DNA of 64,000 nucleotides from Trueperaceae bacterium (GCA_965213925.1 OZ243927.1:1632001-1696000), one strand, 5' to 3'. Positions 17,356 through 49,717 are shown, numbered from the stretch's first letter. Notes: generated by a model from the letters alone, not told the origin. Numbers and translations: made by a program.

Positions 17356-17432
17356 TGGTAGCGATGGAGAGACTTGAACTCTCGACCTCACGATTATGAG
17401 TCGTGCGCTCTAACCAGCTGAGCTACATCGCC
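17356..17432 (-). tRNA. tRNA with CAT anticodon (elongator Met; Ile2 not excluded), intact with encoded CCA
   Basis: GGCGATGTAGCTCAGCTGGTTAGAGCGCACGACTCATAATCGTGAGGTCGAGAGTTCAAGTCTCTCCATCGCTACCA folds as a cloverleaf. Confidence 0.96.
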
Positions 17433-17500
17433 GTGCACCACGCGCTTTATCCGTTTCGTGTAACCACTTGCCCTCACGACTAGCGGGCTCACGATTGTCG

Positions 17501-17530
17501 AGTATAGCCCATAACGCCAGCAGTAGACAA
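17501..17530 (-). promoter_or_regulatory. Sigma70-type promoter of the tRNA, also duplicated at 49847-49876
   Basis: TTGTCT-N18-TATACT on the minus strand, about 70 nt upstream of the tRNA. Confidence 0.65.
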
Positions 17531-17851
17531 GTGGTTTTGCATCATCCACCGCTCAGCAGGTCAGCGCCCTTGGTTTGTTTGGTTTGTATTTCCAACTGAC
17601 CCGTTCAAGCCTCACCACCGGGGCACTTGCTCGGCTCCCTGGCGGTCGCTTGAGGTCGCAAGTACCCCGCTTCCGCTCCCGCTGGTCGCTCCAGTCGCTC
17701 CTTAGTCCATTAGGGTAGGGGTACTAGCCTAAGCCATGCTTGTTCACTCCGGCACACGAATATATTCGTGTGCCCTTTTTGCGTCCCTCACGAACTTTCC
17801 GACTTTACAAGACCCTGCCAATTGGGGTAGGCTCTAGGCCCAGGAGGAACC

Positions 17852-18160
17852 ATGCGGCGACGTTATCTTCGTCTTCACCCCAAGGTCAGAGCGCGTCGGG
17901 TAGGAGCGGTGTCTACTCCCAGACAGCCTACGCTACTCACCCCTTCGCCTGCGCCAATCTCCGCGCATTCAAGGACGTCTACTACTCGGAACAAGTACCT
18001 CAAAGCCTATGTGTCTCGCACCATGCACGAGCGCTTTCACGCCGAAGCCGCACGTCAGAACAAGACTATGAGCGCCTTGCTCCAGGAGCTAGTTGGCGAT
18101 TATCTAACCCAAATTGAGGTCCAAGAGCGCTGGTCAGCCCTGCGTAGCGCACCCAGATAG
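17852..18160 (+). CDS. Ribbon-helix-helix (CopG/Arc-like) DNA-binding protein
   Basis: KYLKAYVSRTMHERFHAEAARQNKTMSALLQELVGDYL; AGGAGG RBS. Confidence 0.7.
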   Translation: MRRRYLRLHPKVRARRVGAVSTPRQPTLLTPSPAPISAHSRTSTTRNKYLKAYVSRTMHERFHAEAARQNKTMSALLQELVGDYLTQIEVQERWSALRSAPR

Positions 18161-18221
18161 GTCCTACCGGCCCCATACAGCCTCGACATAGCAGGACGAC
18201 ATTACGAAAGGATCTAACATC

Positions 18222-18560
18222 GTGAATGACGCTCGAGAAATCAAGCGGCTGCAACGCCAAATTCTCGACTTGCAGGGAGACTTGAGTAGGCTGAAAACTA
18301 CCGTTGACACCCAGAAGTACCGCACCGAGAGCGACTTCGACACTCAGACTTACCTGATCAGCAAGCTGGAGCAGGACCTAAAGTGGTTGAAGCGTAAAGG
18401 TGATAGCTCCAGCCAACTATCTTTGGCTACCTCCTCTCGAGAGGTTAGGGGCATTTTTCAACACTTACCGGACCCTTTGCCCTTCTTCGCCGGAGTTCTG
18501 CTCGGCGTTGTGATTGCGAGCCTGCTTTTCATATTCGACATCGCTGCACGCGCCGCCTGA
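18222..18560 (+). CDS. Hypothetical coiled-coil protein with a C-terminal TM helix
   Basis: Heptad-like N-terminus; FFAGVLLGVVIASLLFIF. Confidence 0.55.
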   Translation: MNDAREIKRLQRQILDLQGDLSRLKTTVDTQKYRTESDFDTQTYLISKLEQDLKWLKRKGDSSSQLSLATSSREVRGIFQHLPDPLPFFAGVLLGVVIASLLFIFDIAARAA

Positions 18561-18740
18561 GTTGCGCTTTGCCTGCCCGGATCGAGATGATACCCCCGCT
18601 AGGACTCAAGCCGTGAGAGATGGGCGCACGGCTTCCAAGAACCTTGAGCCCATTCGCCAAAAGAAAAGCAAGTCCAGTGAGCAACAAGAAGAGTAGGTAG
18701 TTTGAGTGTTACGCGCGATGAGTGGTGGAGCCTACGACAT

Positions 18741-19604
18741 CTACGAGATCAGTTTGGAAGGGTGTGCCGCCAGGTCATTAGCGATCTGGCGGGCGATGAT
18801 ATGCGCGTCCTCATAGTCAAGCGTTTCGATCCCGTCGTCACGCAGCAGGTGGAGCAGTTCGTCCGTCTCGCCCGCTTCTACTAGATTGGAGGGATAGTAG
18901 CCAAGCACGGCGAACTTGGCGTCTTGGTAGACGGTATCCAAGCCCGAGGCGCTCCGCACGTCCCGCGCGGTCATGCGGTAGCTCTGCACCGTCCCGGAAG
19001 TTTTCTCGGTGCCCGTAAAGGGGATGAGCTGGTAGTAGTGCATAACGTCGTTCTGATACGCGAAGTCGATTTTAGGTGCAGGGACAGGCGGCTTGACGTC
19101 CTGCTTGACCTCAGGACGCTCGAAGAGCCCAGCCTGTCTAAAGACGCTGCTAACCTGCTTGCGCATGGCTTGGCGCGTGACGCGCAGTCTCTTCGTGCCT
19201 TCTTCAGGGACCGCGACGAACTGGTGAAACAGCTTCTCCAAGGTTTCCTCTGGGTTGGAGGTCAAGGCGGAGCGCGGCTCGCTGAGTTGGATGTTGTTGT
19301 GATAAAAAGCTCTCAGTCTATGAAGCCCTGAAGGGGTCAGGATGCCTTCTGGAGAGACTCCCTCTTCGATAAAACTATTCAACTGCTTATGGTCGAACGC
19401 ATATCTGAGTTTCGTTAGCGCGTGCCTCACGAAATGCCCATCCCAGTTGCTGAGCGCCTTAGCCCTGCTGTCATCGCCGAAGCTCGGCAGGTAACGCAAC
19501 CCTTGAAACCTCGTCTCAGGGCACACGAGAATAACTCCCACGTTGACAAACTCTTCGCGGAGCATGTTGGGTATGTAGCGGACTACTGCGTATAGTGCAC
19601 GCAT
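18741..19604 (-). CDS. DUF3037-domain protein (usual partner of HipA-like kinases)
   Basis: YAVVRYIPNMLREEFVNVGVILVCP; IQLSEPR; KIDFAYQN; start set at the ATG at 19604. Confidence 0.82.
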   Translation of the reverse strand: MRALYAVVRYIPNMLREEFVNVGVILVCPETRFQGLRYLPSFGDDSRAKALSNWDGHFVRHALTKLRYAFDHKQLNSFIEEGVSPEGILTPSGLHRLRAFYHNNIQLSEPRSALTSNPEETLEKLFHQFVAVPEEGTKRLRVTRQAMRKQVSSVFRQAGLFERPEVKQDVKPPVPAPKIDFAYQNDVMHYYQLIPFTGTEKTSGTVQSYRMTARDVRSASGLDTVYQDAKFAVLGYYPSNLVEAGETDELLHLLRDDGIETLDYEDAHIIARQIANDLAAHPSKLIS

Positions 19605-19736
19605 CCTCTTCACAACCACTATGTTACCTTTGGTGTCCTTTTGCAACCTCCTCGCCAGGTGTTCAGGCAGTGCCCTGACCCTCTGAGATAGGTAGTTTAG
19701 CAGGGCTTCTGCGTTGGGAAACCGCGCCGATTCAGC

Positions 19737-20468: not shown

Positions 20469-21725
20469 TTACGCAGCCTGTCGCACCACAGCCCGCTCCC
20501 GCATCGCTAAAAGCCACTCTATCTCCGTTCGCCGAGCCCCCGAGTCCGGTTCTCCGCGCTGATACGCCAACGCCCAGTCAGCCCGCTCGACGGCTTCGTG
20601 GTAGCGCCCCTCAGCGAGCAGCAGCGCGACCTGCGCTTTGACTTGTTCCCTCTCGTCGCCGTTCAGTTCCGCCCCTCGCCCGAAGTGTACCTGCGCGGTT
20701 TCTTGATCACCGAGGTGGAAGGCGTAGAAATAGGCGGCTTCAAAGTGGAGCGTCGGGTTGAACACGGGGCTGATTGCTTGGGCGGCGGTAAGCGCCTTAT
20801 CTAAGGCATCCTTTGCAGCCTGCACATCTCCGCTGTCCAGGGCGTAGAAGTACCCCGAGATGAGCCCAGGAAAGGCTTCTGCAGGGTTGCGTTCCGGGTC
20901 GAACTGGTCGTAGGGCGCAAGCACACGCAGGTCCCAATCGCGCGGTCTGACAGAACCAAAATAGAGACCCTGGTAGCGGTAGCTCTGCTGTAACCTCTCC
21001 ACGAACGCTGGGTCACGTAAGTTGAGGAGTTGGAGACCATCGAAGAGGAAGTTGCCTACCTTTAGCGGCGCGAGATTACCTAACGCCTGCCACGCCGCGA
21101 ATGTGCCGATGGTCGTCAGCAGAAGCGCAGTGTACAGCTCCCAAGCGTAGAGTTCGTAGGGCTCGAAAGCAGCCAAACCGAGCGCCCGGTGAGCCCCGAA
21201 CGCGGTGACTGCCAAGACGAGTGAGGCGAGCGGACCTGCCAAGAGGATGAGAGCATACCTGCGGCGGAAGTGCGGGTCGTCGGGGTTCTCGGTGTGGAGG
21301 TGAGCCGCGCCGCTCGGCTTGACTCCCGCCCAGTTGTACTTGACCCTGACGCCGCGTTTGTGTGGCTCAATGTGAAGAGGTCCCACCCATATGTACAGCG
21401 TCTTGAAGCCGACCAAGCGCCCCGCTAGGGCGTGTCCCAACTCGTGCACGAAGGTCAGCAGCCATAAGAGGGGCACAGCGAGCAGAAAGGCAACGGCGAC
21501 CCCTTGGCTGTTCAATGCGCCCAAATAGTCGGTGAAAGGCGCGAAGTCGAGGTCGAGGAAGCCGCCAAGCATCCCCAAGAACAAAAAGAGCGCCAAGAGG
21601 ATAAGAACTACGCGCCCACGACCATCTTGTGCCGCGCTTGGTGGTCGGGGTTGCGGCGCGGGCACGTTCTCAGACCCCGTAGGAGTAGGTAAGTCGGTCG
21701 TTTGCGCTTTGCGAGACTGGTTCAT
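20469..21725 (-). CDS. M50-family (site-2 protease) membrane metallopeptidase with TPR-like C-terminus
   Basis: HELGH, LAGPLAS, NLAP...FDG; several TM helices. Confidence 0.85.
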   Translation of the reverse strand: MNQSRKAQTTDLPTPTGSENVPAPQPRPPSAAQDGRGRVVLILLALFLFLGMLGGFLDLDFAPFTDYLGALNSQGVAVAFLLAVPLLWLLTFVHELGHALAGRLVGFKTLYIWVGPLHIEPHKRGVRVKYNWAGVKPSGAAHLHTENPDDPHFRRRYALILLAGPLASLVLAVTAFGAHRALGLAAFEPYELYAWELYTALLLTTIGTFAAWQALGNLAPLKVGNFLFDGLQLLNLRDPAFVERLQQSYRYQGLYFGSVRPRDWDLRVLAPYDQFDPERNPAEAFPGLISGYFYALDSGDVQAAKDALDKALTAAQAISPVFNPTLHFEAAYFYAFHLGDQETAQVHFGRGAELNGDEREQVKAQVALLLAEGRYHEAVERADWALAYQRGEPDSGARRTEIEWLLAMRERAVVRQAA

Positions 21726-22461
21726 AGAGATTCCCGCTTAACTCTAGGGCAGCCGAGAGGTTTAAGCGCGTGAAACGGTCACGCCAACTTGCCTCTTCCC
21801 CTGTGAGAAATCGGGCTTGTTAGTTTCTAAGCGCTGCTCAAAAGTACCCCCCTCCCCTCGTAGTTCACGAAGCGGCAGGGGTTTAGCGCCGTGCGCCCGC
21901 TGGCTGCGTTTTATCTCGAGAAACCCTCTCGTTCCCCTACAGACGTTGCCCCGTAACCTCTTTTTGCGCAGGAGTGCAGAACCGCCCCCCTCCGGGTAGG
22001 TCTAAATCGTAAGCCGTTTTGGGCAAGCGCTTTGTCTAAACCAGCCTCGACGTGTCCCCCTGGGGTGATGAGTTTTGTACCGGAGATGCCGACTAATTTC
22101 TCCCCTTGTCTGCCCTTACTTGATCGTCTAAATTGCCCTGAACCGGACCACGCTTGCCCCCACCGCGAGCTTAAACCATGCCCACGCTGTCTTGGCAGCC
22201 GTGCTCTGCCACTGCCTCCACTCATTACGAGTGAAGGAGTTTTACATGAACCATACAGCCCGCTTTTACCGCCACCTCTTCACGCCCATTCAGTCTCTGT
22301 CCTGCCGGATGCTCACGCCTGTTACTCCGTTTAAGAACGCGCAGGAAGCGACAACTCTTCCCATAGGTGGATCACCTTGCCAGCCAGCGCCAACAAGTGA
22401 ATTTCACACCCCTACCGCGCCCCCTGGCTTACACTCAGTTTGGACTATTACCGAGGCAACA

Positions 22462-23520
22462 ATGCACCAAGAATCTCGCCGCCGCACGATCTACCTCATC
22501 GCCATCTCGATTGGGCTACCCACTTTGCTCGTCGTCTGGTGGCTTCAGCACGCTATAGACCCCTTCGTGCGCGTGGCTCACCCCCTGCTCATGGGTTATC
22601 TCGCCTGGGCTGTCATCGCCCTGAAGCGCGAGCGCGTGCCCCTAAAGGTCATCGAACAAGCGACCTTCTGGGTCAACGTAGCCTTCTGGTATAGCAACTT
22701 CGCCTACAGCCTCATCAGCGGTCACACCTTTACGGTGGGCTGGGCTGAGGTCATGAGCGTCACCATGCTCAACTTCTTTATCCTGGCTGTCCTGTCGCAC
22801 TTGGTCTTCTCGACGCGCTTTGGAGGACGGGTCAACTTGGGGCTCCTGGGTCTCTCCGCCCTCATCGGCGTGGGCGGGCTCCTGCCGGACGTGATGCAGG
22901 GGCAGCACCAACAGGAACTCACCTGGCTCATCCACTTCGAACTCGCCTTTGCGGTGCTCATCGGTTTCATCTACGTCGTCGCCAAGAGCAAAGACGATTA
23001 CACCGAAGCCGCACTCCACGCCCAAAACCTGCACACGATGGCGTATGAGGACGCGCTCACGGGGCTACCCAACCGCCGCCGGGTCGAGGGCGAGCTGGAC
23101 TGGCAAATCGAGATCAGCGGGCGCTATGGACGCCCCCTGTCGCTCATCAGCTTCGACCTGGACAAGTTCAAGAGCATCAACGACACGTTAGGTCATGCGG
23201 TGGGCGACGAGGTGCTCACCTCGGTGGCTAGGCTCGTCAAGCCCCTGCTGCGAGCGAGTGACACCTTGGGGCGTTGGGGCGGGGAGGAGTTCGTCATCGT
23301 CGTGCCGGAGTCAGACCTAGAACACGCCTCTGCCTTTGCCGAGCGCATCCGCACTGCCATCCAGCACGCCCAGCATCCGCACGGGCTTGGCGTTACCGCG
23401 AGCTTTGGGGTGGTGACGTGGGAGCCAGGGATGAGTGCTCAGGACCTCTTGGAAGTGGCGGACAGGCGGCTCTACCAAGCTAAGGCGGGTGGGAGAAACC
23501 GAGTGGCAGTGGGTGCTTGA
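22462..23520 (+). CDS. Membrane diguanylate cyclase (about 6 TM + GGDEF)
   Basis: DALTGLPNRR, DLDKFKSIND, RASD I-site, GGEEF; an alternative in-frame start with RBS lies at 22247. Confidence 0.92.
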   Translation: MHQESRRRTIYLIAISIGLPTLLVVWWLQHAIDPFVRVAHPLLMGYLAWAVIALKRERVPLKVIEQATFWVNVAFWYSNFAYSLISGHTFTVGWAEVMSVTMLNFFILAVLSHLVFSTRFGGRVNLGLLGLSALIGVGGLLPDVMQGQHQQELTWLIHFELAFAVLIGFIYVVAKSKDDYTEAALHAQNLHTMAYEDALTGLPNRRRVEGELDWQIEISGRYGRPLSLISFDLDKFKSINDTLGHAVGDEVLTSVARLVKPLLRASDTLGRWGGEEFVIVVPESDLEHASAFAERIRTAIQHAQHPHGLGVTASFGVVTWEPGMSAQDLLEVADRRLYQAKAGGRNRVAVGA

Positions 23521-24106: not shown

Positions 24107-25702
24107 TTACTCTATGAGACCCCCTTCAAGTTCGGTGTGAATGTCCATCTGAGCTGCGGTGTCTTTAACGACCTGCTTAATCTTAGATTCCCACTTGGTT
24201 ATGCTTTTCGTCTTGTAGCTCACCGTGAAGCCATCGAATTGGTAGAGCGTGACTTTGAAAACCTTTTTATTTGGCTCGGCGAGCTGATAAACCGGCGCAA
24301 GTAGTCTCAACTCGGTCTGTTGGGCTCTTCTGGCGAGCACCTGCTTTGCGCTCTTACGTGTGTTGTCACCTAGATATCTGGATTCGATACCGAAGCGCTC
24401 TGCTAGGTTTGACGAGCAAAGCTCCTGCATAATCTTCTCGATCTCTTCTTCGCGAGCATCGAAGAGGTCTTGAATGATCGGAATCGCCTCGAATTTTTCG
24501 TAAAGACTATCGGGTTGACCAGAAGACAACAAGGCGCGTTTGACGTTGTGCTTCTCAGCACCAAAGACTAGCGCGTAGATAGCGGTTTTCAAATCAGGTT
24601 TGATAGTCTGGAGGTCTACTCCAAGCTCGTCCGCTAGATAAGCCCAGGCTGAACCCTGCGTTTCTAGCAGGACTTGAAGGTCCGTGACGCCCCACTTCTT
24701 CGCTACGATAGCAAGCTGAGCCGATTTCAGGTCGTACTCGTACCAGCCACGTGTGAGTTGCCGCCGAACATCTTTCCTAATACTTAAAAGGGAGGGATAA
24801 CTTCCGTACAGCCGCGCTGTCTTCTCTACCGTGTGGATCATCGGCTTCGGGCACCCTAGGATGAAGAGGAGTTGCCCCCAAGCCTGATGCTGGGAGCGTT
24901 CAGTCCTACCCATACAGTTTGCTAGGTGTTGAATTGCAGTCTCGCGGTTCTTCTTCACGATGTCAGAGAACACTTGGATATCGAGCCCGTTCTGGTACTC
25001 GACAATCATCTCGCTATCTGACTTGAGCTTTTCAGACACAATTTCCCAATCTGAGCTAAAGCACGGCATAGGCTTTACAGAGCTGTAAGGGGCAGACAAA
25101 TCTTCTAAATTGGTAAGTTTCTGAGCTGGGAAGAGTGATTGAAGATGGCTGATGGTAGAGGATGAGTCTGCTATGTCGACATGCAAGGGTATCGACGCTG
25201 CCTGCTCGAAAACCGCTCCGCGCCAGTCTGCTTGAATCTGGCGCGTGACCTTCTTGCCGGTCGAGAGGACTACCTCATCCTCTTTGCCCTCTTTAAGGTC
25301 CCGCCACATCAGCTCGCGTAAAGCCTCTGCCTCTGGACCGAGCCCTGTGTTTTCAACCTCACGCGCTTTACCTTGCTTGTACCTTTCATGTGTATGGTCA
25401 GTATACTCGAAGCCCGGCACAACATCCCTTTTGAAAGCCTCTAAGAATCTATAGCCCACGTAGTTTGAATTCGCCTTTTTGCCCTCAAACGAAGCGAGCT
25501 TCTCCCTGGATATCACGATATTGCCCAGCTCATCTTCATCGCCTATTTCATCGCTATCTTTTTCTTCTTTATTGTCAAACTTAGACGGAAAAAGCAAATA
25601 CATCATTAGATGCCAGTATGCCGGGTTCTTCTCCAGCCCTGAATAGGCTTGCACAACTGCTTCTCTAAATCTTCTGCTGCCCGTAGTCCTCGCGTAGCTC
25701 AT
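24107..25702 (-). CDS. Divergent family-A (PolA/T7-like) nucleotide polymerase-like protein
   Basis: TARLYGSYPSLLSIRKDVR (cf. TGRLSSxxPNLQNIP), motif A YDLKSAQL, motif B KTAIYALVFG, AQQTE, motif C QFDGF. Confidence 0.65.
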   Translation of the reverse strand: MSYARTTGSRRFREAVVQAYSGLEKNPAYWHLMMYLLFPSKFDNKEEKDSDEIGDEDELGNIVISREKLASFEGKKANSNYVGYRFLEAFKRDVVPGFEYTDHTHERYKQGKAREVENTGLGPEAEALRELMWRDLKEGKEDEVVLSTGKKVTRQIQADWRGAVFEQAASIPLHVDIADSSSTISHLQSLFPAQKLTNLEDLSAPYSSVKPMPCFSSDWEIVSEKLKSDSEMIVEYQNGLDIQVFSDIVKKNRETAIQHLANCMGRTERSQHQAWGQLLFILGCPKPMIHTVEKTARLYGSYPSLLSIRKDVRRQLTRGWYEYDLKSAQLAIVAKKWGVTDLQVLLETQGSAWAYLADELGVDLQTIKPDLKTAIYALVFGAEKHNVKRALLSSGQPDSLYEKFEAIPIIQDLFDAREEEIEKIMQELCSSNLAERFGIESRYLGDNTRKSAKQVLARRAQQTELRLLAPVYQLAEPNKKVFKVTLYQFDGFTVSYKTKSITKWESKIKQVVKDTAAQMDIHTELEGGLIE

Positions 25703-25840
25703 TGTAAGTTCTCCGCTGTCGTAGATTCATTGACCTCAAAGCCCCACATCACCACAAAGCCCCAGACTCAGCAGTTAAAAACTTCTTGCGAGAGGGAATT
25801 CTCTATACCAAAGCCCACCCATGCGTTAAACTTCTCAAAG

Positions 25841-26122
25841 ATGTCAGCTCAACTCACGACCAACCACGCTAAGATCATCAACGAACTCTGGCAAGCCGCC
25901 GTCAACCTACGCGGCTCAATAGAACCTGCCGACTACAAGCGCTACGTCCTGACGATCATCTTCCTGCGCTTCTTGTCACTGGGCTACGAGCGCAGGTGTG
26001 AGGCGCTTCAAGCGCTGACTGACGACCCCGAGAGCGAGTACCACACGACCGCCCCGGAGGTCGCTGAGAGCATCTTAGAAAACGAGACATTCCTCACGCG
26101 ACATAACTTTTCTCGTGTGTAA
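25841..26122 (+). pseudogene. hsdM: Type I R-M HsdM N-terminal remnant
   Basis: NELWQAAVNLRGSIEPADYKRYVLTIIFLRFLS is the HsdM N-terminal signature; stops after about 93 aa. Confidence 0.85.
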
Positions 26123-26185
26123 CAATACGCTTATTTAACCGGGCTGAAGGGCGTTCTTAGAGGTCTTTGCACCGGCAGTGGAGTT

Positions 26186-32100: not shown

Positions 32101-33396
32101 CTCACCGCCCCCGGTTCTGGTCCCGAAGAGGCGCAGTTCAGCTTTTTCAACACCAACGTGAAGCACCTCAGCGACCTGAGTCGCCACTTTACCCTCTCCG
32201 CCGAAGACTTTAAGCGCATCAATCCCAACACGCTAACCTGCCCGACCTTTCGAACTGGCAGAGACGCCGAGATTACGCTGAAGATGTACAAGCGAGCGGG
32301 CGTGTTTATAGACGAGAACGATGAGGAGAACGGCAACCCCTGGGGCGCGTCATTTATGCAAATGTTCAACATGACGAGCGACTCGAGCCTCTTCCGCACC
32401 AGGGAGGAACTCGAGGCTGAGGGGCTTACGCTGACAGGCAACAGGTTTGTTCGAGGTGAAGAGGTCTATCTGCCGCTCTACGAAGGCAAGATGGCTCACA
32501 TCTATGACCATCACTTTGCCTTTTTCGATTCTTATGAAGGTGAGTACCAGTCTTACGATGAGAAGAATGCTACCGCACCTCTCACCACGCAATTTTACGT
32601 CCATCACAACGAGGTAAAAGAGCGTGTATCTCGTCGTAAGTGGGAGCGAAAGTGGTTCTTCGGGGTACGGAGAGTAACGCGCAGTAATGACACCAGAACT
32701 GTTATCGGTTCGTTTGTTCCGTATTGTGCAATTACATATGGTCTTTACGTACTTTTTTCGCCCGTATCGTTATTGAACTACATTGCTCTCGTAGCTAACT
32801 TAAACTCTATAACATTCGACTACCACGCTCGTAATGCACTTAGTCAGCCTTCGCTAACTTACGGTGTGCTGTATCAGCTACCTAATGTCAAAATTACCAA
32901 GTATTCCAAAGAAAACCTCCACTTCATCCTCCCCCGCGTGCTCGAACTCACCTACACCGCCTGGGACATCAAGCCCTTCGCCGACGACCTCTGGCGCGAA
33001 GCGGGCGAGGAGGTGCGGGGACTGTTTCGGGAGGCGTGGCGGGCGAACGCGGCGGCGTCGGGTGGAGGTCATGCGACCCAGCCGCCAGCGTGGGCAGAGG
33101 TTGACGCGGAAGTTGATGCGGCGGGCTGCCCGTTAGCGCCTTTTACCTGGAACGAGGCGAGACGCGCCGAGTTGCGCTCAGAGCTGGACGCGCTTTACGC
33201 GCACCTGTATGGGCTGACACGCGAGGAGCTGGCGTGGATTTTGGACCCGCGCGACATCGACCCGGCAACGCCGTCGGTGTCCTTTCCGGGCTTGCGGCGG
33301 AGCGAGGAGAAGCGGTACGGGGAGTACCGGACGAAGCGGCTGGTGCTTGAGTATTTCGATAGGTTGGCGGAGGCTCGAGAGGGCGTAGAGGTATAA
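29113..33396 (+). CDS. Large N6-adenine DNA methyltransferase (Eco57I/type IIG-like, DrmMI-like)
   Basis: [39 protein letters not shown]; overlaps the SNF2 stop codon (TGATG). Confidence 0.92.
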
Positions 33397-33476
33397 GCTG
33401 CGGAGCGCGGCTATCCCTAAATTCGCCCTTGATAGAGGCTATAATGGACCAAACGAAGCAAATAAGGAGTCGTGCT

Positions 33477-33644: not shown

Positions 33645-33835
33645 ACGCGCTGATCAGATGCGAAATACCTCACTTCTGTGACCTTCTTCTGATGAAGTGC
33701 GTTAGGCTTGACAGAGGTATACAACATGGTTTCTTTATCTATTTCTGAACTCAGACTGGCGCAGCCTGACGTGCGAACGCTAAGCGCGAACCGAGGTGGG
33801 TGTCCGTCAGTATGTCTTACTTGTGAGGGGTTATC

Positions 33836-41745: not shown

Positions 41746-41821
41746 GGCCCGCCTAAAGCATCGCCGATGAGGAGACCGACCAAAACTCCGGTGAGGTGGT
41801 CGGATCATCTAATGAGAATAA

Positions 41822-41971
41822 CACCGCGAGGACATCAAGGCGGCGGTGCGCTCAGCGGTCAAGCGGGTGCTGAGACACCGCAAGGTCAAGCGGGAGGACT
41901 GGGACACGCTGGTGGTGCTTATCATGGACCAGGCGGAGGCGCTGTATAAGGACTGGCCGCAGGCGGCGTAG
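41822..41971 (+). pseudogene. hsdR: Type I R-M HsdR extreme C-terminal remnant
   Basis: HREDIKAAVRSAVKRVLRHRKVKRED...DQAEALYKDWPQAA*; 11 mismatches in 150 nt versus 55890-56039 (hand count). Confidence 0.8.
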
Positions 41972-42157
41972 TCGCCAAGTCCTTCACCCTTCACTAAAAT
42001 GGGTCAACCCCACCACAGAACCCGTTGGAGCCCTGCCGCTGTAAGAATTCTGTCAGTGGATGCTCTTTATGCTTGAAGCGATTGCTCGCTCATTAAGAAA
42101 ATATACAAACGGAGGTTTGGACAAGCTGAGCGGGCGTCCGAGGCACGGGAGGACTCT

Positions 42158-44245
42158 ATGATTCGGATGAAGGCATCATTCCTTACGGAACTGCACAGCT
42201 TGCCTGCGGGACCACAAAAAAAGGCGGACAAGGTCATCACGGCTCTCGAGAGACAACGAGGGCGCTACCCGGACGCCATCAAGCTCAAAGGCTACCGCGA
42301 CCTCTACCGCGTCCGCATCGGCAAGTACCGCCTCATCTACGAGAAGAGCCGCAACCAAGTTTTGGCGCACTGCATCAGACCGCGAGCGACCGTATATAAG
42401 AGCTTGGAACTCGTCGAAGAGGAGCAGCTTGACCACTTGGACGCGGAGTTTGACGATGTACTCGACACCTCCCTATCAGCCGAACGAGAGGTTGGTCATG
42501 GCGAAGAAGACTTACCCGAGCGGCTCACCCCTCAGTTCCTGAGCGCGTGGAACATTCCTAAGCCCTACCACAGCGCCCTAGCACATTGCCGCACCGAGAC
42601 GGACCTCTTGGAGACCTGCCTTAAAGGGGTACCCTACCCCGTCTTTTCCAGTCTCATCGCCGCTCTATACCCGTCAAACCTTCAGCAGCTACAAGCGGAC
42701 GCGACCTACCGCCTGCCTAGCGAAGAGGAGCGTAAACGCCTCGCGGCGGGCGAGCTGACTAGCTTTTTGCTGGTTTTAGACGACGAGCAGACCCGCTTGG
42801 CGGAGCTGAGCCTGGATACCGCGCGAGGACCGATCCTCGTCAAGGGCGGACCGGGCAGCGGCAAGAGCACCATCGCCCTACACCGCATCAAAAAGATTCT
42901 GGAGCGGGAACACCAGAAGCTCGCAGACGCCCCCGTGCGCATCCTCTTCGCCACCTATACCAAAGCACTCACCAACGCCAACAAAGAGCTGCTGAATAGC
43001 CTGCTAGGGACGGGCAAGCACACCGTCGAGGTCACTACCGTCGACGCGGTGGCTTATCGAGTCGTGAGAAAGTGTGGGTCGTTACCCGTAGAGCGGTTGA
43101 GCGAGGACCACGCCGCGACCCTGAAGTTTTTTAGAGAGGCCAAGGCGTCTGTAAACCTCCCTAAGTCGCTTCAAGCCTTTCAGGAGGGCTACCTTGTCGA
43201 AGAACTCTTCCAGGTCATCGAAGCTCAGGGGCTCCTGACCGAAGAGGACTACTTGCGCAGCAAGCGACTGGGTCGCAAAGCCAAGCTCCCGAAGGCCGCG
43301 CGGCAGGCGCTCTGGAGCATCTACGAGCGCTTCTTGGAGCGGATGCTCGCGGCGCGGATGCAGACCTGGGACGGGCTCCGCACCGAAGCCTACGGCTACG
43401 TGCGAAACGGCATCTACGGGGAGAAGTACGACTACGTGGTCATCGACGAGGCGCAAGACCTCACCCCCTCCGGGCTGCGCCTGATGGTCGAACTCTGCAA
43501 GCACCCTAACGCCCTCTACCTCACCGCAGACGCCGACCAAGCGCTCTACAAGTCGGGTTTCTCGTGGCGCAAGGTCCACGCCGACCTCAACGTCAGCGGG
43601 CGCACCTACGTGCTCAGGCGCAACTACCGCAATACCCAGGAGATTAGCGCGGCAGTAGACGATATCCAGCAGCAGATGAGCGGCGAGCGCCAAGAAGCCC
43701 ATCAACTAGGCGTGAAACGGGGGCGCAAACCGAAAGTGATTTTGACAACGCCAAACACAGAGGTCGCCCAGCTCAAACAGCACCTCAAGGCGGCGTGCAA
43801 GGACACTAAGCAGCCCCTCACCAACGTCGCGGTGCTCCTCGCCGGCGACCAGAAGTACGCCCACACGCGGGGTCGGCAGCTCGCCCAGGCACTTAAAGAC
43901 ACCGGCTTGCCCGCGAACTACTTCGCCGCCAAAGATTTGAGGCTTGACGCACGCTGCATCAAGGTCATGTCGCTTTACGCGAGCAAAGGGTTGGAGTTCC
44001 CGGTCGTAGTCCTCTGGGATGTCAACGACGGTCTCCTGCCACGTCGGGTGGAGCACCTACCCGAAGCGGAGCAGCGCGAGGAAGCGAGTCGAGACCGGCG
44101 GCTTTTCTACGTCGGGGCGTCGCGGGCCATGCAGAGTCTAGCGGTGTTTGCGGACCGGGACAAAGTCTCGCGGTTTGTTACGGAGCTGTCACCTGATGTC
44201 TGGGAATTGCCCGCTTGGGATGAGGCGGTGTTGAAGGCTGCTTGA
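42158..44245 (+). CDS. RelE/ParE-UvrD helicase fusion
   Basis: IKLKGYRDLYRVRIGKYRLIY; GGPGSGKS, DEAQD, NYRN, SKGLEF, YVGASRA. Confidence 0.88.
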   Translation: MIRMKASFLTELHSLPAGPQKKADKVITALERQRGRYPDAIKLKGYRDLYRVRIGKYRLIYEKSRNQVLAHCIRPRATVYKSLELVEEEQLDHLDAEFDDVLDTSLSAEREVGHGEEDLPERLTPQFLSAWNIPKPYHSALAHCRTETDLLETCLKGVPYPVFSSLIAALYPSNLQQLQADATYRLPSEEERKRLAAGELTSFLLVLDDEQTRLAELSLDTARGPILVKGGPGSGKSTIALHRIKKILEREHQKLADAPVRILFATYTKALTNANKELLNSLLGTGKHTVEVTTVDAVAYRVVRKCGSLPVERLSEDHAATLKFFREAKASVNLPKSLQAFQEGYLVEELFQVIEAQGLLTEEDYLRSKRLGRKAKLPKAARQALWSIYERFLERMLAARMQTWDGLRTEAYGYVRNGIYGEKYDYVVIDEAQDLTPSGLRLMVELCKHPNALYLTADADQALYKSGFSWRKVHADLNVSGRTYVLRRNYRNTQEISAAVDDIQQQMSGERQEAHQLGVKRGRKPKVILTTPNTEVAQLKQHLKAACKDTKQPLTNVAVLLAGDQKYAHTRGRQLAQALKDTGLPANYFAAKDLRLDARCIKVMSLYASKGLEFPVVVLWDVNDGLLPRRVEHLPEAEQREEASRDRRLFYVGASRAMQSLAVFADRDKVSRFVTELSPDVWELPAWDEAVLKAA

Positions 44246-44417: not shown

Positions 44418-45119
44418 ATGCTGATAGCCCGACTTTCTCTTCGGATTATCTACCCGCTATGCTTCGCTTTAGCCTCACTTCTCTCTTTCGGCCTCGCCCA
44501 ACCGGGGAGTCCACCTCCACTGGGACTCGTTCTCAAAATCGAAACGGCGCAGCGGCTCAGACAGGGACAACTAGAAAAGCTCGTCTGGATCGAGCGAGCC
44601 ACCGCTAAGCGCGTTGAGGTGTTTACCAGCAGATCAGGTCGGACGCACGTGCGATTTGATTTCGAGGCGAACGGTGAGTGGTTTTCCGCCATCATGTTTG
44701 CCGGTGAATGGACGGAAACCGAGGTCTCACTGCTGCGTTCCCAAGAGGTTAGTCTAATCGGACTCTGGGACAGATACGGCGGCGCGCATTCACTGGTGAC
44801 TAAGTGGGTGACGCTCGCAAACGCTTACGCGGACCCCTACGAAACGGCTCAGGCTGTTGACCGGGAACGAGACATGGTCAGCATAGAGAACGCTCACACC
44901 TATGACATCACTAAGTTTGTAAGCCGATCAACCCGGATGCACGCGCGTTTCAAATTTCGCGTTGCGGGTCGTAGCGACGAGTTTAGCGGCATCGTTTATG
45001 AGGGCGTGTGGAACACCGATCTGCTGGACCGATTACGCTCTGGAACGGCTAATCTGGTGGGCTACTGGGAGGAGTATCAAGGTGAACCCTCGTTTGTACT
45101 CCGCGCTGTGGAGCCCTGA
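44418..45119 (+). CDS. Secreted protein with two tandem beta-rich (possibly OB-fold) repeats
   Basis: Signal-peptide-like N-terminus ending GLA-Q; repeat FTSRSGRTHVRF...GLWDRYGG versus FVSRSTRMHARF...GYWEEYQG. Confidence 0.65.
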   Translation: MLIARLSLRIIYPLCFALASLLSFGLAQPGSPPPLGLVLKIETAQRLRQGQLEKLVWIERATAKRVEVFTSRSGRTHVRFDFEANGEWFSAIMFAGEWTETEVSLLRSQEVSLIGLWDRYGGAHSLVTKWVTLANAYADPYETAQAVDRERDMVSIENAHTYDITKFVSRSTRMHARFKFRVAGRSDEFSGIVYEGVWNTDLLDRLRSGTANLVGYWEEYQGEPSFVLRAVEP

Positions 45120-46867
45120 TGCCGTCGATATTCGCTAAACCATCCTTTAGGGCGTCGTCTCTTTCAAACGTGTTCTACGAGTATCTGGAGTCGCTTGGAG
45201 ATGATACCGAGGTGCTGCTGGAGTTTGTGTCACTCGGACCCGATAAGCGTCAGATAGACTGCGCCATTCTCAGCCCCAAAGGTGTTGACCTCATCGAAGT
45301 CAAAAATAAGTGGGGCAAAGTCACGGGCAGAGCGAACTGTGAATGGCAGGTTGAATATCGGGGAAAAGTCGAAGCTATCTATAACGTCAAACGCGGCGTC
45401 CGAGAGAACCCGTTCGGGCAAGCGGACCATTCTGCTCGGGACTTCAAAGAGGGAATTCGCTGGTTCACTCACAAAGACATTCCGGTTTACCCTTTGGTAC
45501 TCATCCCGCAGGGTCACCCCCAATCGTTCTTTGAGCGCCACAACTTCGTTTATCACGCCAACGGCGTTGCCGAGCTGCCTGCCAAGCTGCGAGCACTGCA
45601 TCCAAAGCGTCCTGAGCAGCACTGGGATAGAGCACAACGCCGAGCGCTGATTGAACACCTGGGGTTAAGTGAGGTCGGCTTAGCCAGGGTTGTAGGTGAG
45701 TTGCTCGATCAGCATACTGGGGAGGGCATTGCAGGAGCCAGAGTTCGCTTTGAGAGTGCACCTGCAACCGAGACCGGGCAAGAGCCGAGTACGCTCACCA
45801 ACGACAGGGGAGAGTTCAGCGCTATGCTTCCTGTCGGGCACATGCGCCTCGTAATTCAGCCTCCAGAACCCTACCTGTCACGTAAAGTGCCCAAGGAGGC
45901 GACGCAAGGCTTCAACAAGCTTGACCCTATCCGACTGACCTCTCGAGATCACAGCTCGCCCCCGAACGAGGTATTCGGTAAGACCTTAGAAGAGATTAAA
46001 GTACAGCTTCACCAGCTTAATCAACGCCCGAGAGATAGCTTTCGCGAAGAGTTCAAACAGGAGGTCCAGGACGAGCTTCAAGACCAAGGAGACACGCTCA
46101 GGCTCTTGTCAAGCGAGTTTCGGCGTCTTGAAAACAGATTAGAGCAGCCCGTTGAACCCTCTCGTGAGGACCCCTGCGTAAGAGATGCACGTGACCTCAA
46201 GCAGCAGCTCACTGACCCACGCACACCACTAGATAAGGTAACAGGTACGACAACGCAGTCAAGAGCACAGCAAGCAGTCGAGCATGGGCCCGTGCCGGAG
46301 CGCAAAGTGCAACTCGGTAGCTCGGCCGAGCCAGGGCAAGCACTCCACAACGAGAGCTTGACAGATGTCTCGTCGGAGCCTTCCCGCTCTCAACCTTTTC
46401 GGAAACGCTCACGTCGGCTAGGTCTTTTGTATGTAAGCGCCGCGTTTCTCGTACTGGCAGGCGCTGGCACATGGTTCACAGCACAAGAGAGACCCGAGCA
46501 AGGAATATTAGCGGTCCCTACGGAGAGGCGAGTGGGGCAGACGCCAGCGGCACAGAGCAGCTTTGTGACACGCCTTCAAAACCTCTTTTACCAGCGTTCC
46601 ACCTTGCCTGGACAGCCTGTTCTTCTCGAGACCGAGTCCCAGCGCTTACCTGAGCAAGCCGTTTTAGAGCGCCCCCACGCCGGAGCCTCAGCGATTTCAT
46701 CTCACGCTTGTCCGCAGAGTCATCCTCTTAAAGGCAACGTCAACGCGCAGGGCGTCAAGATTTATCATCGACCAAGTCAGACATACTACGGCGTCACCGT
46801 GCCTGAAGCCTGTTTTGCGTCGTCAGAGGAGGCGCTGAGGGCTGGCTTTCGAGCGAGCAAGAAATAG
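45119..46867 (+). CDS. NERD nuclease fused to an Ig-like domain, coiled coil, TM helix and C-terminal thermonuclease-associated (Ada-like) domain
   Basis: QIDCAIL...IEVKN, ENPFGQ; GIAGARV...TNDRGEF; LGLLYVSAAFLVLAGAGTWF; CP..HPLKGN...KIYH...CFASSEEALRAGFR. Confidence 0.8.
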   Translation: MPSIFAKPSFRASSLSNVFYEYLESLGDDTEVLLEFVSLGPDKRQIDCAILSPKGVDLIEVKNKWGKVTGRANCEWQVEYRGKVEAIYNVKRGVRENPFGQADHSARDFKEGIRWFTHKDIPVYPLVLIPQGHPQSFFERHNFVYHANGVAELPAKLRALHPKRPEQHWDRAQRRALIEHLGLSEVGLARVVGELLDQHTGEGIAGARVRFESAPATETGQEPSTLTNDRGEFSAMLPVGHMRLVIQPPEPYLSRKVPKEATQGFNKLDPIRLTSRDHSSPPNEVFGKTLEEIKVQLHQLNQRPRDSFREEFKQEVQDELQDQGDTLRLLSSEFRRLENRLEQPVEPSREDPCVRDARDLKQQLTDPRTPLDKVTGTTTQSRAQQAVEHGPVPERKVQLGSSAEPGQALHNESLTDVSSEPSRSQPFRKRSRRLGLLYVSAAFLVLAGAGTWFTAQERPEQGILAVPTERRVGQTPAAQSSFVTRLQNLFYQRSTLPGQPVLLETESQRLPEQAVLERPHAGASAISSHACPQSHPLKGNVNAQGVKIYHRPSQTYYGVTVPEACFASSEEALRAGFRASKK

Positions 46868-46936
46868 CTGCTTGGTTTTTCAGCGGGTCACGTGAACATC
46901 AAAGTGCAACCTTAAATGCCTAATTGTAAATCCCTG

Positions 46937-46960: not shown

Positions 46961-46973
46961 TCTGTGTTAAGCT

Positions 46974-47492
46974 GTGCTTGTGTTACAGCCTCAAGACGTG
47001 CTGGTCGGCCTTAAATTTGCCGCCAGTCCAACTCAGCCGATCGGCTACGAGCGGCTTGCAGATGAACTCGGCATTGGCTTGTCAAGTGCGCACCGCTCCG
47101 TCCAGCGCCTCACCAAAGCTGGGCTGCTCAGTCCAGAGCGCAAAGTCAACCGAGCGGCGCTCTTGGAGTTCGTCTTACACGGGGTCCGGTACGCCTACTA
47201 CGTCAAACCAGGTGAGCTTACGCGCGGTCTCCCTACCGCCTACGCTGCGCCGCCGCTTGCTGGCATCATCAGGTCGGGTAGTGAGATACCTGTTTGGCCC
47301 GACCCGGAGGGCACGGTGCGGGGCTACGCGGTAACGCCCCTACATAAGTCAGTGCCGGAGGCGGCAAAGCGTGACCCCGACTTGTATGAGCTTCTCGCGC
47401 TCGTGGACGCGGTTCGGATAGGCCGCGTCAGAGAGCAGAAGATCGCATCTGAATTGCTAACGGAGCGCCTGAAGTCAGGCATTAGGCTATGA
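46974..47492 (+). CDS. Winged-HTH protein (AbiEi/antitoxin-like)
   Basis: YERLADELGIGLSSAHRSVQRL; RGLPTA, PVWP, LALVDAVRIGRVRE. Confidence 0.72.
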   Translation: MLVLQPQDVLVGLKFAASPTQPIGYERLADELGIGLSSAHRSVQRLTKAGLLSPERKVNRAALLEFVLHGVRYAYYVKPGELTRGLPTAYAAPPLAGIIRSGSEIPVWPDPEGTVRGYAVTPLHKSVPEAAKRDPDLYELLALVDAVRIGRVREQKIASELLTERLKSGIRL

Positions 47493-48178
47493 GTGATCCC
47501 GTTTTAGAGAACATCATGACGGTGGCGCAATGCTTGCAGGAGGTCGGCGTGGAGGACGCCGTCTTTGTCGGGGGTGCGACGGTGGGCTTGCTACTCACGG
47601 ACCCGGCTGCGCCTGAAGCGAGGCCGACGCTGGATGTTGACGTTGTCACGCCCGTCGCGTCCCGCCGCGCTTTCAACATGCTTGAGGCTAAGCTCAGGGA
47701 GGCAGGTTACACGCAGCCGTTAGGAGAGCCTATCTGCCGCTGGGTCATCGCCGGGGTCACAGTGGACCTCATGCCGCCGGACGAGGCCATCCTCGGCTTC
47801 TCGAACCGCTGGTACGGCGACCTTGTCGAGCACGCCGAGCCTAGAGCGCTGCCGAACGGCACTCTTATCCAGTTAGTCAGCACGCCCTACCTAGTCGCCA
47901 CCAAGCTCGAAGCGTTCCGGGGACGGGGGCAAGAGGACTACCGCTTCAGTCATGACCTCGAAGACATCATTATCCTCTTTGACGGACGCGAAGAGGTCGT
48001 GGGCGAGATAGAGCGAGCGCTTGACGACGTTCGCACCTATATCGTCAGCGAGTTCAGGCGGCTGCTGGGCGACACCGAGTTCCTGGAGGCTGTACCCGAG
48101 CACTTAGCTCCAGACGCGGCTAGTCAGGCGAGGGCGTCAGTAATTCTCGAGCGTATGAGGCGTCTGCTTGTGCTCTAA
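47489..48178 (+). CDS. Nucleotidyltransferase-fold protein (AbiEii-like)
   Basis: FVGG...RPTLDVDVV, VDLMP, TKLEAFRGRG, SHDLEDI; ATGA overlap. Confidence 0.75.
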   Translation: MSDPVLENIMTVAQCLQEVGVEDAVFVGGATVGLLLTDPAAPEARPTLDVDVVTPVASRRAFNMLEAKLREAGYTQPLGEPICRWVIAGVTVDLMPPDEAILGFSNRWYGDLVEHAEPRALPNGTLIQLVSTPYLVATKLEAFRGRGQEDYRFSHDLEDIIILFDGREEVVGEIERALDDVRTYIVSEFRRLLGDTEFLEAVPEHLAPDAASQARASVILERMRRLLVL

Positions 48179-48237
48179 CAAGAAGGTCAATAGAGGTCGT
48201 GCTGCGCGGTTCTTAACCCATGTCGTCGCTTCAGGCG

Positions 48238-48522
48238 TCAGTTAGCAGGTACGATCACCGGCGCGTCCGCGTCTTCACGCTCGCCCGAGCTATCCGAAGG
48301 CCGGCTCACCAGCTCACCCTGCACGACTATCGCGCTCAACCCGCCGCTATCTGAGTTGATCGCCTCTTGCGCGCGTAGGAACTGCATCACTTCCACCGTC
48401 TCGGGCACGGAGAGTCCCACGCTACGTTCCGGCTACCGACCGTCAGAATCATCAGGGGCAGTGTGCCGTCAGTGGTAATACCCGCCGCCGTACGTGGGTA
48501 GCGCCGCACCACCAGTAACCAT
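48238..48522 (-). pseudogene. Phosphodiester glycosidase (DUF2233/NAGPA) C-terminal remnant
   Basis: RYPRTAAGITTDG, frameshift, DGR*PERSVGLSVPE...AINSDSGGLS...RPSDSSGER. Confidence 0.7.
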
Positions 48523-48710
48523 TATCAAGCTCACGAGTGTGATCAACTGCCGAACGCGGTGTATTGTGCTCTGCCTATATGTTTACCCCAGACACTGGTA
48601 GAAGCTAGCAGGCAGGCGTCAGCCGCGCGTCGGTATGGACTGATGGCGGTTCTAGGCGCACCATAACGTCTACCCCTCGGGTTAGAAGCAAATTAGTCAC
48701 GACGAGAGCG

Positions 48711-49598
48711 CTAAAGCTCGACTTCAAGAAGGGGTGAGGCTCGCCTATGAATCTCCTTGAGGTCTTCTGTACCCATTGCGGCGTAGCGGTCCGACATGGT
48801 AAGCGTCTTATGCCCCAAGATGCGCTTCAAAGTAAACACATCCCCGCCATTCTTGATGAACTGGACGGAGAACCCCCGCCGGAAGGCGTGCGGCCCCTTG
48901 GGAGCGATCTCAGCCCCTTCACAGAGGTCGTGGAGCATTTTGCGCAGCCCGTAGCGGGTGAGAGGCGTGTCCTCGTCCGAGAGGTAGATATAAGGCAGCG
49001 ACGTAGCGGGCCGCTCCGATTGAATGTAGCGCTTCAGCACCCTGAGCGCTATTCTGGAGATGGGCACGACGCGGTCTTTGCCACCCTTGCCTTTATTGAC
49101 CCACAGCCTGCCGTTCGGCTCCAGGTGGCTGAGCTGGAGAGCCAGCAGTTCGGAAGCGCGGAGCCCCGTGTCGTAGAGAGTGGTCACGATGGACTGGTTG
49201 CGCAGGGGTTTGCGCGTCGCTTTGGCGGCCTGCATCAGCAGCTTATACTCGTGCTGCTCGATGACATCCTGACGCTCCTCGGGAACTTTGGGTAATTTGA
49301 TTTTGAGAAACGGATTCTTGGCGATGACCTCTTCGCGGAGAAGCCAGTTAAAAAAGACCCTGAGCGCTCTGAGCCGGGCATGAACACCCCCGCTGGACAA
49401 CTCCTGCTGCTGGGTCATGTGAGCGATATAGTCGCGTATAAGCGTGCTGGTTACGTCACCTGCCAGGAAAACACCCTGCTCGCCCGCGTACTCGACGAAC
49501 TTCTCCAGAGCCGTCCGGTAGTAGCTGAGCGTGTTCCGTGAGAGCTGGCGTATTTCGCAGTCGCTGATAAATTCCCGTGCCGTCTCGCCGAGTTCCAT
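48711..49598 (-). CDS. Tyrosine recombinase/integrase
   Basis: YDTGLRASEL, GKGGKDR, HAFRR, LGH, RYA; AGGAGG RBS; 120 nt from the att junction. Confidence 0.95.
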   Translation of the reverse strand: MELGETAREFISDCEIRQLSRNTLSYYRTALEKFVEYAGEQGVFLAGDVTSTLIRDYIAHMTQQQELSSGGVHARLRALRVFFNWLLREEVIAKNPFLKIKLPKVPEERQDVIEQHEYKLLMQAAKATRKPLRNQSIVTTLYDTGLRASELLALQLSHLEPNGRLWVNKGKGGKDRVVPISRIALRVLKRYIQSERPATSLPYIYLSDEDTPLTRYGLRKMLHDLCEGAEIAPKGPHAFRRGFSVQFIKNGGDVFTLKRILGHKTLTMSDRYAAMGTEDLKEIHRRASPLLEVEL

Positions 49599-49717
49599 GT
49601 CGCCTCCTGCTGGAGGAGGTCACACGACTCGCCGAAAGCGTGCACATGATTCGCCTAATTTTGAGTGGTTTTTGAAGTTCAAAAAATGCGAGTTTTTGCG
49701 TCCTACACGGGATTTAA

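Follow-up and report, generated by a model that had tools for sequence, protein, structure and literature searches.

What kind of mobile DNA carries a polymerase-like gene together with a tyrosine integrase and a load of defence genes? The question is raised by a 64,000-nucleotide stretch of a Trueperaceae bacterium genome (GCA_965213925.1 OZ243927.1:1632001-1696000), hereafter the window, meaning the whole stretch that was analysed. A first-pass annotation, made from the sequence alone, had proposed that positions 17372-49717 form a pipolin-like island organised around a family-A-like polymerase encoded at 24107-25702. We find that this segment is one complete site-specific integrative element, that its polymerase-like protein (P0001) is predicted to have a family-A DNA polymerase fold, and that the pair of integrase and polymerase-like genes recurs in compact elements of other genomes.

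A complete element with a family-A polymerase-like protein

The segment 17372-49717 measures 32,346 bp, which is exactly one repeat unit of a perfect 279-nt direct repeat, in agreement with the limits first drawn for it. The features that define the element are the following.

17356-17432, minus strand: intact tRNA-Met (anticodon CAT), the integration target (ARAGORN)
17372-17650: left att repeat, made of the 5' 61 nt of the tRNA, from the T-loop onward, and 218 nt upstream; 100% identical to 49718-49996
24107-25702, minus strand: P0001, polymerase-like protein of 531 amino acids (aa), backbone gene (profile, hhalign, AF2, Foldseek, VIA)
48711-49598, minus strand: XerC/D-like tyrosine integrase, 295 aa, full-length, backbone gene (Pfam, NCBIfam and PHROGs scans)
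49718-49996: right att repeat, a shortened tRNA copy without the 3' 16 nt (repeat match; no ARAGORN tRNA call)

The tRNA-Met is the sole tRNA that ARAGORN called in the window, and the edge of the repeat lies in its T-loop, 16 nt from the tRNA 3' end. Because the right copy has no tRNA 3' end, the 5' part of the working tRNA gene and the region upstream of it are supplied by the element, and by the same repeat structure the displaced original portion of the tRNA sits at the far end of the element. In another genome of the same genus (G002), only ~0.5 kb lies between tRNA-Met and the homologues of window 59144-63244 (phosphoketolase and amine oxidase genes; 84% DNA identity), so that window 17433-59143 is an insert relative to that genome. 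The 3' side of the tRNA is variable as well, since ~8.6 kb separates an aminotransferase gene from tRNA-Met in G002 (L027, G002:C2:869000-888999, positions 1440-10020), whereas the two are neighbours in the window.

The integrase foreseen by the first-pass annotation is present: Pfam recognized a Phage_integrase domain (E 1.8e-31) and SAM-like N-domains, and in NCBIfam the protein resembles XerD/XerC with scores under the equivalog cut-offs. Its start codon is 120 nt from the right att repeat. The 32,346-bp element is probably still mobile.

Open reading frames (ORFs) of the element were scanned with Pfam (25 ORFs) and PHROGs (13 ORFs), ORFs shorter than 60 aa being outside the systematic scan. 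As had been anticipated, no capsid, portal, terminase or tail family was found by either scan, and no relaxase, coupling protein or type IV secretion system (T4SS) family was found in the 25 Pfam-scanned ORFs, with no oriT search made. Likewise, no satellite-type primase, helicase or Rep family was detected among the ORFs scanned with Pfam and PHROGs, and DNA_pol_B matched none of the 25 element ORFs in Pfam, so the element has no piPolB. The ribbon-helix-helix regulator that had been proposed did not materialize: no scanned ORF matched such a family, ORFs under 60 aa not being systematically covered, and the sole regulator-like match was a weak winged helix-turn-helix (HTH) in 46974-47492 (Pfam).

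As a single sequence, P0001 had no match in Pfam (PF00476 included, at E<=0.01), NCBIfam or PADLOC, no match among PDB sequences at E<=10, and nothing in PHROGs beyond a 27-residue match (E 0.034). Its relatives were more informative. Once aligned, the first 14 relatives showed blocks that look like the A, B and C motifs of a family-A polymerase, and the family profile searched against the PDB returned eight rows: Pol nu (E 0.0043), six of Pol theta and one unrelated. When 125 members were compared by hhalign with 24 chromosomal Pol I sequences of related genomes, the two families aligned with a probability of 91.7% (E 7.9e-7) over 222 columns, residues 292-526, covering the palm and fingers of Pol I. 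Pfam DNA_pol_A matched 15 of 96 members at E<=0.01 (best 3e-11), other families matching at most two members each; the protein of locus L006 scored 22 bits against PF00476, for which the gathering cut-off is 34.3.

Eight residues (R297, D324, W353, K372, Y376, E464, D490 and G491) were invariant in the 125 sequences. D324 and D490, the aspartates of motifs A and C, were invariant in the set of 96 sequences too and lie inside the hhalign match. For motif B, all sequences share K372 and Y376, and all or nearly all share G381; these residues align to the RRxAKxxNFGxxYG region.

The AF2 model of P0001 was of high confidence (pLDDT 88.1, pTM 0.86), with disorder confined to 194-223. A Foldseek search with this model gave 163 matches at E<=0.001, and all of the 50 best-listed rows were family-A DNA polymerases at a probability of 1.00 (Klenow 1kfd, E 7.9e-8). 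VIA-align, an independent structure aligner, run against representatives, returned the following matches.

Apicoplast Pol: Z 15.6 (292 residues, root mean square deviation 3.6)
Aquifex Pol I: Z 15.3
Pol nu: Z 14.6
Klenow: Z 14.5
T7 DNAP: Z 13.1
Pol theta: Z 13.0
T7 and mitochondrial RNA polymerases: Z ~10

The family-A matches aligned 288-309 residues, corresponding to ~160-531 of the model. Taken with the profile comparisons, the predicted structure indicates that P0001 has a family-A DNA polymerase fold with the residues of motifs A, B and C, and the gene called polymerase-like in the first-pass annotation is real. The predicted layout is a winged-helix-like N-domain (~1-155) followed by thumb, palm and fingers (~160-531), with neither a 3'-5' nor a 5'-3' exonuclease domain, the core being ~370 aa. 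A ~52-residue low-confidence insertion in the thumb (~171-223) is missing from the nearest relative.

Folded alone, residues 1-164 gave a confident model (pLDDT 90.3) that had no Foldseek match at E<=0.001 and reached at most Z 6.4 with VIA. The weak VIA matches were nearly all winged-helix DNA-binding proteins (MarR, OmpR/PhoB, LexA and CRP), and the iteron initiators Pi and RepE were among them at Z 5.5-5.6, a score no better than noise. For these reasons we call the domain winged-helix-like and no more. When shorter proteins were searched with residues 1-290, the one match was a 272-aa fragment from a contig of 1.9 kb, and such a fragment does not argue for an N-domain that exists by itself.

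The integrase and polymerase-like pair in other genomes

The polymerase-like family is large. A profile built from the alignment of 14 relatives and searched against 1.84 billion representatives matched 1764 proteins at E<=0.001 and 1096 at E<=1e-30, each being a representative cluster at 50% identity; most of the best 150 matches were 430-530 aa long. The notion that the family is rare, which came from the 14 relatives found by a word-indexed protein search, was overturned by this exhaustive search. The only name returned for the relatives was "hypothetical protein".

Among 364 genomes of the phylum to which the window belongs, 26 carried the gene, mostly in a single copy, and a few of the profile matches were stop-broken or fragments. 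The gene did not appear in the profile results for G001 and G002, two other genomes of the same genus. Twenty phylum loci were examined over ~10 kb per side with a hidden Markov model (HMM) of tyrosine recombinases built from five sequences, and 15 of the 20 had a tyrosine recombinase within 10 kb. At many of them, the integrase adjoined both a tRNA and the polymerase-like gene. A tRNA was nearby in 12 loci; eight of these have a second partial copy of the tRNA, forming direct repeats of 60-189 nt, and of the other four, one has a 27-nt match (E 0.028) and three have no repeat. The eight repeat-delimited elements are small.

L125: 5.2 kb, tRNA-Asn
L114: 6.5 kb, tRNA-Ser
L112: 6.8 kb, tRNA-Ser
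L111: 7.3 kb, tRNA-Trp
L128: 7.5 kb, tRNA-Thr
L129: 8.3 kb, tRNA-Ile
L123: 9.6 kb, tRNA-Ser
L122: 13.7 kb, tRNA-Met

In L112, the repeat begins in the T-loop as it does in the window, and the integrase, which adjoins the polymerase-like gene there, is 43% identical to that of the window. An all-versus-all BLASTP of the eight elements and the window element left only two families common to all nine, the polymerase-like protein and the integrase. Self-BLAST revealed three further repeat-flanked units: L001, a 12.8-kb unit at tRNA-Lys from a different phylum; L119, of 9.5 kb; and L121, of 6.5 kb, in which the polymerase-like gene is broken.

We therefore consider it very probable that these elements make up an unnamed family whose backbone is a short XerC/D-like integrase and a polymerase-like protein of ~470-530 aa. 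Everything else is exchangeable cargo, mostly anti-phage. By Pfam, this cargo includes GmrSD, HEPN, AAA_15/21 ATPases, type III restriction-modification (R-M), PIN, DUF5677 and DUF4325; by PADLOC, it includes NsnA, NsnB, DitA, PDC-S02, PDC-S19, R-M and PtuA/AriA-like genes, with matches in 7 of 9 elements (the eight of the phylum plus L001; L111 and L128 had none). The expectation that hsdM would accompany the family fell away, since the cargo varies from element to element. Small serine resolvases of 221-237 aa were found in four of the nine elements (L112:11212-11910, L114:11193-11891, L128:12224-12937 and L129:6934-7599); they may resolve multimers or shuffle cargo.

A second survey used pattern scans seeded with a motif-A peptide, which yielded 8 genome, 4 viral and 31 metagenome loci with genes defined as greedy longest-ORF calls. 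Seven of the eight genome loci had a recombinase within 10 kb, tyrosine in L001, L004, L005 and L008 and large serine in L003, L006 and L007. With the 15 phylum loci and the eight tRNA-repeat elements, this bears out the linkage of homologues to integrases and att sites on which the first-pass proposal depended. The neighbours at the genome loci were restriction-modification, Dnd-like, Mrr, PLD or toxin-antitoxin genes. The eighth, L002, is a prophage with tape-measure, DUF2586, amidase and terminase genes.

Pfam was run on 18 metagenome and viral loci, and phage structural genes were present in nine (L056, L057, L058, L065, L067, L068, L072, L088 and L089), including Mu Gp36, Mu-like protease, baseplate J, terminase, DUF2586 and prohead protease; serine recombinases were present in two (L075 and L089). 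The phage-borne proteins and some island-borne ones are longer (560-645 aa), with the match confined to residues ~230-526, so the N-terminus of the long forms differs. In L002, L056, L057, L058, L068, L072 and L088, a long form (roughly 450-610 aa) adjoins the large terminase gene of a Mu-like or tailed prophage. The Mu-like protease profile matched two ORFs 7 kb apart in L058 (11220-11744 and 18918-19811).

In a quick maximum-likelihood tree of 55 rows, the window protein grouped with those of L111, L060 and L001 (SH-aLRT 99), its identity to the L111 protein being 34%. Contexts with tyrosine and serine recombinases were scattered over several clades. An HTH_17 (Xis/AlpA-like) gene was directly upstream of the polymerase-like gene in two loci only.

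Possible roles of the polymerase-like protein

What would such an enzyme do for an integrative element? The integrase would recombine the att repeats and excise the element as a 32.3-kb circle, to which the N-domain might direct the polymerase-like enzyme so that the element DNA is copied. The enzyme might replicate the episome once it is excised, or make the second strand once the element has been taken up, and the element would then be pipolin-like in function, with a family-A polymerase in place of a family-B one. On the whole, we favour as the best explanation a mobile element with a two-gene backbone that is copied by its own family-A-like enzyme. That the gene serves the life cycle of the element and is not cargo is, on balance, probable as well, because only the polymerase-like and integrase families occur in 9 of 9 elements while the cargo varies. 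The narrower claim that the enzyme is the replicase of the excised circle is quite possible yet falls short of probable; the resolvases in four of nine elements would fit a circular, multicopy replicating stage. More doubtful is the broadest form, in which these elements would add a third kind of self-synthesizing integrative element to those known and would be the first to be based on a family-A polymerase, the winged helix targeting a minimal PolA to an origin on the circle for replication without the host replisome, possibly primer-free, and the enzyme having been taken up by Mu-like phages.

Several observations weigh against the element being copied by this enzyme. In the protein itself, the consensus of motif C is QHDG (FDG in P0001) with G491 invariant, so the second acid of HDE is missing, and by manual reading of the alignment Gln329 stands at the position of the Klenow steric-gate Glu. 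Around 24107-25702, the search for an iteron- or origin-like repeat array turned up just short two-copy matches. Between the gene and the integrase there are 23 kb, and the G+C of the gene is 0.49-0.51 against about 0.6; the distance and the lower G+C mean that it could have been acquired separately.

The distribution of the family adds to these points. Searched by tblastn, 50,697 phage records contained no match to P0001 and 72,556 plasmid records contained one, on a 557-kb plasmid with no integrase annotated within 15 kb (the gene table there being incomplete), so no known autonomous replicon is built on the gene. Five of the 20 phylum loci had no recombinase match to the HMM, two of them reaching a contig end, and 8 of the 18 metagenome and viral loci had neither recombinase nor phage structural genes, many of the contigs being short. 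The pattern loci cover the DLKSAQLAI-motif clade, which is part of the family. In the tree, the ten phage-labelled rows (seven labelled by context and three, L064, L069 and L073, by similarity only) form one clade (SH-aLRT 98) in late regions of Mu-like or tailed prophages, a position where one would sooner expect an accessory gene than a replicase. The original proposal of an element built on a family-A-like enzyme is thus upheld in the fold and in the linkage to integrases and att sites, and is qualified by the occurrence of the family in this prophage clade.

Another possibility is that the polymerase-like protein is an accessory single-gene anti-phage or anti-defence effector, which makes or modifies nucleic acid and is not replication machinery. 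This would explain why the gene stands alone, with no conserved neighbour or partner gene across 40 loci, sits in defence-rich islands, has no origin-like repeats around it, is patchily distributed and mostly single-copy, and in one clade is found beside the terminase gene. However, it is one of just two genes common to all nine att-delimited elements, whose known defence genes differ, and this pattern marks a backbone gene and not cargo; the five family members tested had no PADLOC match. We regard an effector role as unlikely.

The enzyme could instead act in integration, transfer or repair, by filling gaps, by converting single strands to duplex after transformation or conjugation, or by repair in Mu-like transposition. 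Conserved catalytic residues agree with this idea, the best PDB profile matches are to the repair enzymes Pol nu and Pol theta, both also among the top structural matches, and it would account for the gene being in both integrase elements and transposable phages. On the other hand, tyrosine and serine recombinases leave no gaps that need filling, and the ranking within family A is weak evidence, as Z scores of 13-15.6 are nearly tied across subfamilies. Such a role seems quite unlikely to us.

Very unlikely is that there is no coherent element and the locus is a tRNA-linked hotspot of successive insertions and homologous recombination, with the integrase and polymerase-like genes as unrelated leftovers and the 279-nt repeat arising by duplication: the mosaic with hsdM and hsdR scars and a second, incomplete left arm, another incomplete left arm with a truncated integrase copy just beyond the window, the G+C variation within the island and a perfect repeat that is long for an att core and could undergo RecA-mediated recombination all speak for it, but eight other genomes hold compact tRNA-repeat-flanked elements with this pair, the integrase being of the lineage seen here, the repeat edge is in the T-loop as in L112, and the integrase is full-length and close to the repeat.

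Cargo, debris and relation to known elements

The rest of the 32,346-bp element is cargo, mostly for defence. The defence-like modules and the type I R-M scar noticed at first were both recovered, and the genes are as follows.

17651-19191: left-arm module A, small ORFs and the 3' part of the DUF3037 gene (second copy at 49997-51159, blastn 85.6-88.1%)
18741-19646, minus strand: DUF3037/PDC-M66B candidate defence protein (Pfam E 4.1e-19; PADLOC E 1e-14)
20469-21725, minus strand: peptidase M50-like protein (Pfam E 3.7e-8)
22192-23520, plus strand: membrane GGDEF diguanylate cyclase, cargo (Pfam E 5.1e-45; NCBIfam)
25649-26122, plus strand: hsdM N-terminal fragment, type I R-M scar (HsdM_N E 9.7e-11)
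26186-29113, plus strand: SNF2 helicase, DrmD-like (PADLOC DrmD 2.9e-109; NCBIfam DISARM_DrmD 391.6 bits, under the cut-off of 610)
29113-33396, plus strand: N6-adenine methyltransferase, DrmMI/type IIG-like (PADLOC DrmMI 1.1e-92; Pfam Eco57I, MmeI_Mtase)
33836-39652, plus strand: DEAD helicase of 1938 aa with an MZB (DUF1998) domain, DruE-like (PADLOC DruE 2.9e-109; Pfam)
39649-41745, plus strand: UvrD/GajB-like helicase (Pfam, PADLOC, NCBIfam)
41822-41980: hsdR 3'-end scar (91.25% identity to 55890-56049, in the T1RH-like_C ORF 55296-56039)
42158-44245, plus strand: UvrD-like (UvrD/GajB-like) helicase with a weak ParE-like N-terminus (Pfam, PADLOC)
45119-46867, plus strand: NERD nuclease-related protein with a C-terminal sunset domain (Pfam; NCBIfam sunset E 3.5e-13)
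46974-48178, plus strand: PDC-M21A/PDC-M21B pair, AbiEi/AbiEii-like (PADLOC 1e-46 and 5.3e-61)

The DrmD-, DrmMI-, DruE- and UvrD-like genes form a cluster flanked by the hsdM 5' fragment and the hsdR 3' scar (25649-41980), and it looks as if the inner part of a type I R-M operon had been exchanged for this cluster. The cluster blends signatures of DISARM and Druantia. Compared with DISARM class 1, 26186-41745 contains the DrmD-like and DrmMI-like genes; the DUF1998/MZB helicase matches DruE best and DrmA weakly (1e-13), and no PLD/DrmC gene is found in this interval, a UvrD-like gene standing next instead. The NERD/sunset gene is preceded by the UvrD-like helicase gene and by an ORF of 248 aa with no family match, and may represent an undescribed defence module. 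Left-arm module A had no copy in 30 relatives. The GGDEF proteins encoded at 22192-23520 and 51525-54893 were considered as recent duplicates, which was rejected at 35% identity over the GGDEF domain only.

To the right of the element lie pieces of what may once have been a neighbour.

49997-51324: remnant A-prime, a decayed left-arm copy with a ~2.7-kb deletion (blastn)
55296-56039, plus strand: hsdR C-terminal fragment in the remnant region (T1RH-like_C E 2.1e-36)

Within the remnant, 49997-51159 repeats the left arm at 17907-19191 with 86-88% identity, and 51253-51324 matches 21920-21990. The first-pass annotation had counted two tandem family members. The left-arm copy and the hsdR scar support a second member, which is a remnant only, with neither an integrase nor a polymerase-like gene inside the window; a search for another tRNA fragment, the third that a closed second element would require, found none in the window or in the nearby genome. 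At 6.6-8.9 kb past the right end of the window (G000:C1:1702570-1704863, L135:6570-8863), three successive pieces were observed. The first is an integrase copy that is truncated and 99% identical in aa over residues 132-291; the second, with 90% DNA identity to window 19392-19713, is the 5' part missing from the DUF3037 gene; the last is an M50-like gene (53% aa identity). The arrangement resembles a junction between two tandem elements that has suffered a deletion, and conserved chromosomal genes, phosphoketolase and amine oxidase, separate these pieces from the remnant at 49997-51324. The locus thus contains a complete element together with the rearranged remains of one or more relatives.

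Outside the island, the window also contains a 630-nt direct repeat (72% identical; 3726-4339 and 6381-6994) and a 110-nt inverted repeat (82% identical; 5764-5872 and 9800-9907) with related short copies.

Casposons, polintons and pipolins are defined by self-encoded polymerases, all of family B. Casposons and polintons, whose protein-primed family-B polymerases are accompanied by Cas1 or retroviral-type integrases, are like the present elements in being integrating elements with their own DNA polymerase and differ in that the enzyme here is family-A-like and is paired with a tyrosine integrase, or in other phyla with a large serine recombinase. P4-like and phage-inducible chromosomal island (PICI)-type satellites have the same layout of an integrase at one end by a tRNA and one replication-type gene, whereas Pfam and PHROGs recognized no primase, helicase, Rep, packaging or capsid-redirecting genes of the satellite type in the window element, nor did Pfam in its relatives.

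Pipolins come closest. According to the available part of the published account (PMC11551731), they integrate at tRNA genes with direct repeats, encode a tyrosine recombinase and the hallmark piPolB, carry defence cargo and have no capsid or conjugation genes. The window element shares the tRNA with direct repeats, the tyrosine recombinase, a single self-encoded polymerase gene, the variable defence cargo and the absence of capsid and conjugation genes. It differs in its hallmark, a family-A homologue as opposed to the primer-independent family-B piPolB, and its relatives are typically 5-14 kb with no plasmid form found. The element is pipolin-like in layout and not a member of the pipolin family.

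With family-A polymerases (Pol I/Klenow, Pol nu, Pol theta, T7 DNAP and apicoplast Pol), P0001 has in common the predicted thumb, palm and fingers and motifs A-C. It differs from them in having no exonuclease, a ~370-aa core, the winged-helix-like N-domain, HDG/FDG in motif C and a sequence below Pfam detection. Timinskas et al. 2026 (PMC12926913), in the part available, distinguish PolA1, PolA1-like, PolA2/APEX and PolA3 (3'-5' exonuclease-proficient and prophage-linked), none of which, by their descriptions, is an exonuclease-less protein of ~470 aa. By description, P0001 also fits none of the clusters of phage, organellar and bacterial enzymes of Czernecki et al. 2023 (PMC10201439), in whose available text the word "integrase" is absent. 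A literature search, in which subscription journals were thinly covered, found among the matches listed no element combining an integrase with a family-A polymerase-like protein, no link between PolA-like proteins and phage-defence systems, and nothing relevant on the Mu-like prophage form. The pair of integrase and polymerase-like protein appears to be undescribed.

What emerges is a widespread, unannotated family (1764 clusters) in which a minimal family-A polymerase-like protein is paired with an integrase in tiny defence-carrying islands. The two-gene signature is a simple marker by which such islands can be found and delimited in genomes. If confirmed, these elements would be a new type of backbone among the vehicles of defence islands and their enzyme a new subfamily of family-A polymerases, compact (~370-aa core) and exonuclease-free, with some members from likely thermophiles and thus of possible practical use.

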